Source of the DNA: a virus
Length of the DNA stretch: 64,000 nucleotides
Strand: one strand, 5' to 3'
IMG/VR virus record: IMGVR_UViG_3300037400_003528
Span: 1 to 64,000 of that record
The notes under the pieces were generated by a model that did no database searches, was not told the DNA's origin, and saw nothing but the letters and a program-made list of their open reading frames with translations. Below are positions 10,031-10,796 of the stretch, in pieces; the stretch's first letter is position 1; every line of letters starts with the position of its first letter. Position numbers and translations under genes: made by a program.

Positions 10031-10080
10031 GCGACGCGAGAGGGACTCGCACCCCCCAATGCAGTTACGCACAGCGGTTT
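10031..10080 (-). tRNA. tRNA-Ser(TGA) 3' exon (AA-ACCGC, long variable arm, T-arm GGGGG-TGCGAGT-CCCTC, acceptor TCGCGTC-G)
   Basis: type-II tRNA 3' half; pairs with 5' exon at 10762-10796. Confidence 0.6.
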
Positions 10081-10761
10081 TGGCTCAATCTTATTTCTCA
10101 ACTTTTTTCCATTTAAATCCGTAAGCACTCTTTCGTAAACCTCTAACTACTTCTCCTATATGAGTTGAACCTGTAGTGGAAGTAATACCTAAAGAACGGG
10201 CAGCTTCCATATAACTATTAAAAGAATTAACATATTCTCCTTCTAAAGTATATTGTTCTACAAATTTTCTTTTTTCTCGTAAAGATAAAGGTTTATTATT
10301 AATAATTCTATCAATAACTTTATTTGCTTCGTAGTCATCTAAAAAATCTACAATTTGATTACTAGTGCTTCGTTTTTCTACTAATTTTTTTTCAGAACTT
10401 TGACATAATTCGATAGGAATTAAATAAACAATTCCTTTAAAATAAGTTCCAAAAAAATCTACATCTTCTGCTTTATATTTTACTTTTATATTTCCATCAG
10501 AATGATTCATTCTTGAAGAAACGGTGTTAAAAATTAATCCCCCTGTACCACTTTCATTAGGTCTACTAGTTTTAATTTGAATTTTATATAATTTAGAATC
10601 TATATCTAAAATCATATCATATCGACAATCCTGTGCTAGGGGAATTGATACATTATAACCTAATTGCGTAAAATATAATTGACATTGTAATTCAGTGGTT
10701 AAACCTTTTAATTGAGTTTCGTTTAACATTTAATCATCTCCTTAATAGGGAAAATGATTGA
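10081..10761 (-). mobile_element. 681-nt intervening sequence in tRNA-Ser anticodon loop carrying an endonuclease ORF
   Basis: exons GGCGCGG..GCGGT-CTTGA | AA-ACCGC..TCGCGTC reconstruct the loop CTTGAAA. Confidence 0.55.
10091..10729 (-). CDS. PD-(D/E)XK endonuclease domain plus C-terminal NUMOD/IENR-like HTH (FNSYMEAARSLGI...GFKWKK): homing endonuclease
   Basis: N-terminus paralogous to 7942-8370; C-terminal motif typical of phage homing-endonuclease DNA-binding modules. Confidence 0.6.
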   Translation of the reverse strand: MLNETQLKGLTTELQCQLYFTQLGYNVSIPLAQDCRYDMILDIDSKLYKIQIKTSRPNESGTGGLIFNTVSSRMNHSDGNIKVKYKAEDVDFFGTYFKGIVYLIPIELCQSSEKKLVEKRSTSNQIVDFLDDYEANKVIDRIINNKPLSLREKRKFVEQYTLEGEYVNSFNSYMEAARSLGITSTTGSTHIGEVVRGLRKSAYGFKWKKVEK

Positions 10762-10796
10762 GTCAAGACCGCTTCCTCATCTAGCCGGGTCCGCGC
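10762..10796 (-). tRNA. tRNA-Ser(TGA) 5' exon
   Basis: acceptor GGCGCGG pairs with TCGCGTC (G-U at 2 and 7); 3-bp D-stem with long D-loop; AC stem GCGGT. Confidence 0.6.

Follow-up and report, generated by a model that had tools for sequence, protein, structure and literature searches.

A split tRNA-Ser gene in a viral tRNA array

The DNA analyzed here is a stretch of 64,000 nucleotides (positions 1 to 64,000 of the IMG/VR virus record IMGVR_UViG_3300037400_003528; hereafter the window), and its subject is a tRNA-Ser(UGA) gene that is split by an insert carrying an endonuclease gene. The window harbors an array of ~30 tRNAs, all on the minus strand between 6.7 and 19.6 kb. Within this array lies a class II tRNA-Ser(UGA) gene (minus strand, 10797-10032), which is interrupted between nucleotides 36 and 37 of the tRNA. 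Reading of the sequence assigned to the 5' half (10763-10797) the acceptor strand, the D arm, the anticodon-stem strand GCGGT and loop nucleotides 32-36, CTTGA (10797-10763: GGCGCGG-A-CCC-GGCTAGATGA-GGA-A-GCGGT-CTTGA), with the anticodon TGA at 10765-10763. The 3' half (10032-10080) resumes with nucleotides 37-38, AA, and continues with ACCGC, a long variable arm, the T arm and the acceptor strand TCGCGTC, followed by the discriminator G (10080-10032: AA-ACCGC-(long variable arm)-GGGGG-TGCGAGT-CCCTC-TCGCGTC-G). Its T loop, TGCGAGT, is unusual, and CCA is not encoded. When the exons are joined (GGTCTTGA|AAACCGC at the junction), a 7-bp acceptor stem with two G·U pairs, a 5-bp anticodon stem and the loop CTTGAAA are obtained. 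A first-pass annotation had proposed a tRNA-Ser(UGA) split after nucleotide 36, which is borne out by the exon stems, by relatives recognized as tRNA genes and by empty alleles; its layout of the locus also stood, while its acceptor coordinates and end points were off by one and the insert measures 682 instead of 681 bp.

Relatives were compared as individual loci (L-numbers), with contexts fetched around endonuclease homologues and around matches to the exon pattern. Both halves of the window gene are homologous to the halves found in relatives (for the 5' half L001-L003, L028 and L031), and the acceptor, D and anticodon stems of the relatives differ from the window in a compensatory manner, with the cloverleaf pairing intact in all of them. 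ARAGORN called tRNA-Ser(tga) on the joined exons of seven relatives (L001, L002, L003, L028, L031, L033 and L044). Given these calls and the uninterrupted alleles described below, both halves therefore belong to one gene. A chance origin of the arrangement is excluded, because complementary 7-bp acceptor and 5-bp anticodon stems are present and the arrangement recurs in independent contigs. No other UCN decoder was found among the ~30 tRNAs of the array.

In the window allele all stems and the 7-nt anticodon loop of a class II tRNA-Ser are seen, and ARAGORN rejects it. The allele differs from all relatives at two positions, G18->A (10777) and U55->G (10049), and these changes account for the missing call: in silico reversion of A18 and G55 together restored tRNA-Ser(tga), whereas reversion of neither alone did. 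Positions 18 and 55 of a tRNA are tertiary pair partners. The double change might thus be a compensated tertiary pair and not decay; that the sole oddities of the allele strike both partners together is a hint of tRNA function. The same A18/G55 allele was present unchanged in a second sample (L032).

The insert encodes a predicted PD-(D/E)XK endonuclease

Comparison of filled and empty alleles together with a register diagram delimits the intervening sequence to 10081-10762 (minus strand, 682 nt). It consists almost entirely of an open reading frame (ORF) of 212 aa (10091-10729, minus strand), flanked by 33 nt of non-coding sequence upstream of its start codon and 10 nt downstream of its stop codon. 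Insert bases 1-7, CTCAATC (10756-10762), are a perfect 7-bp complement to 10090-10084 and form the 5' strand of a helix that joins the insert ends. The 3' strand, GATTGAG (10084-10090; bases n-9 to n-3, n being the last insert base), follows directly after the stop codon. The last three insert bases, CCA (10081-10083), lie opposite the anticodon as an anti-anticodon, of which C and A pair with G35 and U34 while the first C is mismatched to A36. A Shine-Dalgarno motif AAGGAG (10738-10743), read from the sequence and conserved in relatives, precedes the endonuclease gene; in the fold of minimum energy, part of it is buried in a small hairpin.

In Pfam searches the ORF matched PDDEXK_5 (PF11645; residues 4-134, E=1.3e-19, 71 bits, cut-off 26.1) and NUMOD1 (residues 157-182, E=6.9e-6, 26.6 bits, cut-off 22.8), in agreement with the PD-(D/E)XK and NUMOD modules recognized in the first-pass annotation. 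A profile of the family, for which 55 protein homologues were collected, matched the structure of I-Ssp6803I (PDB 2OST) with E=4.7e-12. The catalytic D...QxK motif (D38, Q51 and K53) is invariant in 17 sequences and aligned to YD...VQVK of 2OST. These matches support the prediction that the insert encodes an I-Ssp6803I-type PD-(D/E)XK homing-type endonuclease with a NUMOD1 domain.

The window contains a second gene of this kind, a split tRNA-Gln(UUG) on the minus strand (5' half 8430-8395, insert 8394-7932, 3' half 7931-7894), which ARAGORN in intron mode labels wrongly as Leu(taa). Its 463-nt insert holds a 456-nt PDDEXK_5 ORF that lacks NUMOD1 and is 38% identical to the ORF in tRNA-Ser, confirming the paralogy suggested earlier. 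The end helix of the Gln insert, TTAAATC/GATTTGA, co-varies with the helix of the Ser insert.

Empty and filled alleles point to mobility

All close homologues for which the context was fetched reside at the same site of tRNA-Ser(UGA) (L001, L002, L003/4, L028, L031, L033 and L044). A search for intron-less alleles in relatives had been recommended, and the exon pattern indeed retrieved six uninterrupted tRNA-Ser alleles from viral contigs (L022-L027), five of which were called tRNA-Ser(tga) by ARAGORN. The empty allele L022 and its flanks are identical to the exons of the filled locus L001; the site of insertion is thereby located at GCGGTCTTGA|AAACCG, ambiguous by one A, and no target duplication is seen. 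In nucleotide sequence, the inserts of the window and of L001 share 95.2% identity, compared with 83% and 75% for the two exons and about 55-60% for the flanks, and insert divergence did not track exon divergence in five comparisons. The insert is far more alike than exons and flanks and therefore evidently moves between genomes as a mobile element. As expected for homing, the endonuclease gene lies inside its presumed target, empty and filled alleles coexist, and conservation is higher in the element than in the interrupted gene. The proposal of a mobile family that targets anticodon loops is thereby substantiated, the more so as paralogues interrupt eight different tRNAs at the same position, 36|37.

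One of these paralogues was found in a cultured phage. In Enterococcus phage EFP01 (Herelleviridae; KY549443, about 105.2-105.8 kb; L117 2435-2970) a 463-bp insert splits tRNA-Asn(GUU), and comparison with EFDG1 places it at 36|37 without ambiguity. Its gene is annotated just as 'hypothetical protein EFP01_109' and the insert itself is unannotated, while about 29 sister Schiekvirus genomes carry an intact tRNA-Asn at this locus. In Kuttervirus phages a PDDEXK_5 homologue is free-standing between intact tRNA genes, and the same endonuclease family therefore occurs both beside and inside tRNA genes. In Salmonella phage vB_SenA_SM5 (L121 1498-1989), the Kuttervirus example, the free-standing gene lies directly downstream of an intact tRNA-Asn.

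No match to positions 9600-11200 of the window was obtained in a nucleotide search of 50,697 genomes of cultured phages, and a protein-pattern scan of 185,579 prokaryote genomes gave no relative of the endonuclease. When IMG/VR was searched for exact copies of the two insert ends, 14 loci matched one end and 49 the other; no locus had both, and these were regarded as chance matches.

A co-varying helix connects the insert ends and the anticodon

To place the inserts, the insertion point at each locus was derived from the cloverleaf, using ARAGORN on joined exons, hand checks and, where available, empty alleles. Every placeable PD-(D/E)XK insert can be read as lying at 36|37 and then leaves a canonical tRNA, the hosts being tRNA-Ser(UGA), Ser(GCU), Thr(UGU), Thr(GGU), Gln(UUG), Met(CAU), Asn(GUU) and Pro(UGG). 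For several loci, joined exons with the splice point shifted along the helix were likewise accepted by ARAGORN, and the 36|37 position is fixed independently only by L022 for Ser(UGA) and by EFP01 versus EFDG1. The 36|37 rule is not obeyed by the short 'introns' that ARAGORN reported in L008, L009 and L011, which were set aside.

Thirty distinct junctions in six tRNA species were aligned in one gapless register; this set was selected in part by cloverleaf-compatible exons, and L011, L012, L015, L016 and L041, where no flanking split tRNA was found, were left out. U33 and A37 are paired in all 30 junctions. The last insert base, n, is the partner of nucleotide 34 in 25 of them, and base n-1 that of nucleotide 35 in 29, with three pair types that follow the anticodon, and nucleotide 36, opposite base n-2, is paired in 16. 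The last insert bases thus change with the host anticodon. For insert bases 1-7 and their partners n-9 to n-3, 90.5% of cells are paired and each of the seven pairs has changed on both strands in a compensatory manner. Over the whole register the share of paired cells is 84.6%, compared with 53.5% when partners were shuffled and 37-46% when the register was slid by one to three columns. Among close inserts, single pairs pass through G·U, G-C and A-U (L006, L036 and L037) or from A-U to G-C (L047 versus L050). This co-variation shows that the insert ends are under selection at the RNA level for pairing, both between themselves and with the anticodon.

When the entire precursor (765 nt) was folded, the structure of minimum energy had the acceptor, variable and T arms, and its anticodon stem runs on through the anticodon/anti-anticodon pairs and the insert ends as one long helix. 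As in intervening sequences excised by RNase III, the paired insert ends extend a host helix into a long duplex. The two junctions are two-fold symmetric around the three anticodon/anti-anticodon pairs, and a cut 3' of the triplet on each strand would leave a 3-nt 3' stagger.

An HNH endonuclease gene in a third split tRNA

While T-arm motifs were being listed, a third split gene came to light on the minus strand of the window. This tRNA-Cys(GCA)-like gene with an 8-nt variable loop (12500-13296; 5' half ~13296-13258, 3' half 12540 to ~12500) carries at 36|37 an insert of 717 nt (13257-12541) with an HNH ORF (13174-12548). ARAGORN called the joined exons at its default threshold. The last insert bases form G34-C and C35-G pairs with the anticodon, and a 10-bp end helix is found in the same register as in the PD-(D/E)XK inserts. 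An intact tRNA-Cys is present elsewhere in the window (8599-8675), and relatives of the HNH gene are free-standing beside an intact tRNA of the same odd type. From this single window example it looks as if an HNH endonuclease cassette entered the same architecture independently, an argument that some factor besides the PD-(D/E)XK protein dictates this architecture.

An HNH ORF was also found inside an apparent tRNA-Ile(UAU) in L014 (3797-4580). There the insertion is best read as 33|34 and a 7-bp end helix stands three bases off both junctions, a geometry unlike that of the 36|37 family.

The insert does not resemble known tRNA intron classes

The first-pass annotation implied an ordinary intron with a catalytic core and recommended covariance models as a check. 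These were run and matched no intron family, whether over the element (10000-10850, E<=10), over the 16 kb from 5000 to 21000 (E<=1) or over 19 related loci (gathering threshold). Rfam's model for group I introns (RF00028) is insensitive, giving one sub-threshold match in the multiply split terminase gene of EFP01, and the case against a ribozyme accordingly leans chiefly on the lack of space, the boundary nucleotides and the synonymous differences, which are spread along the whole endonuclease ORF. A group I intron would need ~200 nt or more of structured non-coding RNA, while the insert offers 33 + 10 nt. Moreover, the 5' exon ends in A36 and not U, the insert ends in GAGCCA and not G, and a U·G 5' splice site is lacking. 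The last base of the 5' exon varies across hosts (A, G, U or C), and that of the insert is A or C, never G. A group II intron has six domains and measures more than 600 nt without its ORF; the boundaries found here, CUCAAUC...GAGCCA, are not GUGYG...AY, and no Rfam match was obtained. The anticodon-intron pairing typical of bulge-helix-bulge introns is present, but in register diagrams and cofolds the helix is continuous, with at most 1x1 mismatches (none in L005 and L010) and without 3-nt bulges 4 bp apart. A reading of the 7-bp helix followed by CCA as an RNase P or external-guide substrate fits the Ser(UGA) inserts alone, as others end in CAA, AGC, UCA or ACA. The element lacks a ribozyme, leaving the expectation of a catalytic core without room or fitting boundaries, and judged by these features the insert falls outside the group I, group II and bulge-helix-bulge classes.

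A possible route of insertion and processing

The following sequence of events is proposed. The homing endonuclease would cut an uninterrupted tRNA-Ser(UGA) gene at the anticodon stem-loop, and repair would copy the 682-bp element in exactly between nucleotides 36 and 37. The precursor RNA would keep its cloverleaf fold, with the anticodon stem extended by the insert ends into a long helix. A protein endonuclease specific for this helix, RNase III-like or another host or phage enzyme, might cut both junctions, and an RNA ligase might rejoin the halves to a functional tRNA-Ser(UGA). Either the precursor or the RNA cut out of it would act as mRNA for the endonuclease, and different endonuclease families (PD-(D/E)XK and HNH) would have colonised the same insert layout. 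That the element is a protein-processed intervening sequence without ribozyme, on whose excision the tRNA halves are rejoined, is the reading we lean to, tentatively and with slightly more doubt than trust. The wider claim is held more loosely still: it is possible that phage-infected bacteria perform a protein-catalyzed tRNA splicing that needs neither a ribozyme nor a bulge-helix-bulge, in which a continuous helix is recognized, cut at 36|37 with a 3-nt stagger and religated, and which several endonuclease families have spread among unrelated phages.

Rejoining competes above all with a doubtful but serious possibility, namely that a selfish homing-endonuclease gene disrupts a dispensable tRNA that is never restored, so that the halves are discarded and the helix serves the endonuclease gene. 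In variants of this explanation the tRNA scaffold closes the precursor and makes it resist exonucleases, or a site of ~20 bp for RNase III releases the endonuclease mRNA; pairing with the anticodon would lengthen the duplex to the size of an RNase III substrate. Several observations weigh against rejoining and fit a dead gene. RNA ligase, RtcB, polynucleotide kinase and splicing endonuclease were not found in the 64-kb window when about 35 window ORFs, including translations that read through TAG, were searched with Pfam and PHROGs; likewise, no EndA/Sen-type splicing endonuclease was present among the ORFs searched, and over 100 kb the annotation of iF6, a Schiekvirus relative, lists no RNA ligase or repair enzyme. 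Classical RNase III cuts with a 2-nt stagger, unlike the 3-nt stagger here. The joined exons of the window allele, deviating at G18 and U55, gave no tRNA call. EFP01, alone among about 30 sister phages in having the insert, was cultured and is viable with its sole tRNA-Asn interrupted, and loss of the tRNA is thus tolerable. Free-standing relatives of both endonuclease families adjoin intact tRNA genes. Finally, horizontal movement is frequent, and intact exons may mirror recent invasion and need no selection. Rejoining is favored by other findings. Two unrelated endonuclease families, at least nine tRNA hosts and unrelated phage lineages share the 36|37 position and the register, suggesting a rule imposed by the processing machinery. 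Some 30 distinct junction loci, with endonucleases down to about 45% identity, all have cloverleaf-compatible exons, although this was in part a condition for inclusion. In L033 the endonuclease gene is frameshifted, yet the exons and the compensated helix are kept. A dead gene would also cost the phage its only UCN-decoding tRNA.

The remaining alternatives concern the agent that cuts or moves the insert. It is improbable that the insert-encoded PD-(D/E)XK enzyme itself cuts the RNA, with the helix mimicking its DNA target (a 3-bp anticodon core and 3-nt 3' overhangs) and just a ligase being needed. I-Ssp6803I leaves 3-nt 3' overhangs. The two-fold symmetry of the junctions around the anticodon/anti-anticodon triplet and the invariant catalytic residues would suit such an enzyme, and the helix arm 27-33/37-43 has the same sequence as one DNA half-site, I-Ssp6803I being a tetramer on a pseudo-palindromic 23-bp site (PMC3384342). 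The HNH insert with its identical architecture and the dissimilarity of insert bases 1-7 to the second half-site speak against it. In addition, we know of no metal-dependent enzyme of the I-Ssp6803I family that cuts double-stranded RNA. Self-splicing, by a ribozyme that overlaps the ORF or belongs to an undescribed class, is very improbable. It would agree with the nearest characterized relative of the endonuclease, which resides in a 655-nt group I intron of a cyanobacterial tRNA-fMet (PMC1995217, PMC13011429), and with the insensitivity of the group I model, to which one of the presumed terminase introns of EFP01 gave its match below threshold. It is opposed by the mere 43 nt of non-coding sequence, the wrong boundary nucleotides, the variable synonymous sites throughout the ORF, the missing intron-family match and the Gln paralogue, in which 456 of 463 nt are ORF. 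A DNA transposon or insertion sequence whose terminal inverted repeats are bound by a PD-(D/E)XK transposase is barely credible: the insert ends do form a 7-bp inverted repeat, but no target-site duplication was seen between L022 and L001, the insertion is always at one nucleotide of the cognate tRNA, and the protein is homologous to a characterized homing endonuclease. Moreover, the 'repeats' differ among relatives and co-vary to stay paired, the signature of an RNA structure and not of a protein site.

Relation to known systems

The home of I-Ssp6803I is a 655-nt self-splicing group I intron with a core of ~200 nt at position 33/34 of the tRNA-fMet of Synechocystis PCC 6803 (PMC1995217, PMC13011429). 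It shares with the present element the endonuclease family, the tRNA anticodon stem-loop as DNA target and a mobile insert in the anticodon loop; the present element differs in lacking a ribozyme, in its position at 36|37, in the extra NUMOD1 domain, in the end-to-end helix and in its phage host. In its logic the RNA layout comes closest to the protein-spliced introns of archaea. Protein-spliced tRNA and rRNA introns of archaea and eukaryotes, some with LAGLIDADG genes, likewise lack a ribozyme, lie in the anticodon loop, pair with the anticodon and have symmetric cut sites and an endonuclease gene in the loop. Unlike bulge-helix-bulge introns, the inserts described here have no 3-nt bulges, lie at 36|37 and not 37/38, and occur in bacterial viruses, for which, to our knowledge, no EndA-type enzyme has been described. 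Bacterial rRNA intervening sequences, including the endonuclease-bearing insertions in Patescibacteria rRNA, resemble the element in having no ribozyme and paired ends that extend a host helix. They are removed by the double-strand-specific RNase III. The rRNA then works in fragments without ligation, whereas a tRNA broken at 36|37 would need to be religated.

Among phages, Lak megaphages have tRNA introns that were called 'enigmatic' in 2019; there, too, the anticodon loop is interrupted by sequence that fits no intron class, but those inserts are short and ORF-less, and no endonuclease, helix rule or series of empty and filled alleles was described (PMC6784885). Endonuclease genes that reside in tRNA clusters and target tRNA regions are also represented by T4 SegB (PMC2330249) and the Kuttervirus PDDEXK_5 genes, which, unlike the present ones, stand between tRNA genes and not inside one. 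A survey from 2026 listed 80 stand-alone PDDEXK_5 genes in Jug phages and drew no link to tRNAs (PMC12880540). No published description of the tRNA-splitting element was found in the literature.

Introns of bacteria and phages are held to be self-splicing (group I or II), and protein-spliced tRNA introns are regarded as a hallmark of archaea and eukaryotes. Here, widespread interruptions of phage tRNA genes without ribozyme show a strict, co-varying RNA architecture common to two unrelated endonuclease families. Rejoining of the halves would amount to a new splicing pathway in the bacterial world with a new recognition motif and would account for the 'enigmatic' tRNA introns of phages; without rejoining, selfish endonuclease genes would use the tRNA scaffold for their expression while killing accessory tRNAs. 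Standard tRNA finders miss the split genes, and phage tRNA repertoires are therefore under-counted, in the window by Gln, Ser-UCN and Cys-like genes. EFP01 and its insert-free sisters form an experimentally tractable pair.

Further observations in the window and in relatives

TAG is apparently read as an amino acid in the window. Five long ORFs (53688-61289, plus strand) contain 9-21 in-frame TAG codons each, and a suppressor tRNA(CUA) is present in the tRNA array (11091-11167, minus strand). In the endonuclease gene of L033 a TAG replaces the conserved Gln of TELQCQ, pointing to TAG as a Gln codon.

The tRNA array also contains a ROOL RNA (14887-15483, 279 bits), and a weak YrlA/Y-RNA-like match was obtained at 9443-9555 (30.8 bits, below threshold). 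A ROOL RNA is likewise located by the tRNA array of EFP01. The window encodes a DUF2828/DUF7788/VWA protein (3978-5540), and in the relative iF6 a DUF2828 protein is annotated beside ROOL. An 808-aa protein with a major-vault-protein shoulder and repeat domains is encoded at 27634-30060.

Four odd tRNA-like genes on the minus strand were seen by Rfam alone (13835-13958, 16193-16249, 15523-15591 and 19347-19416). They comprise a tRNA of 124 nt whose D region is enlarged by an inserted 7-bp hairpin, a mini-tRNA of 57 nt that lacks arms, one without a proper anticodon stem and a low-scoring one that can be read as a second tRNA-Gln(UUG). Short ORF-less insertions of about 70 nt are present in phage tRNA genes of L009 (1697-1842) and L011 (2267-2410). 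The insert in L009 holds a tRNA-like T arm (Rfam tRNA match 1731-1798), which recalls the tRNA-in-intron case of Lak phages.

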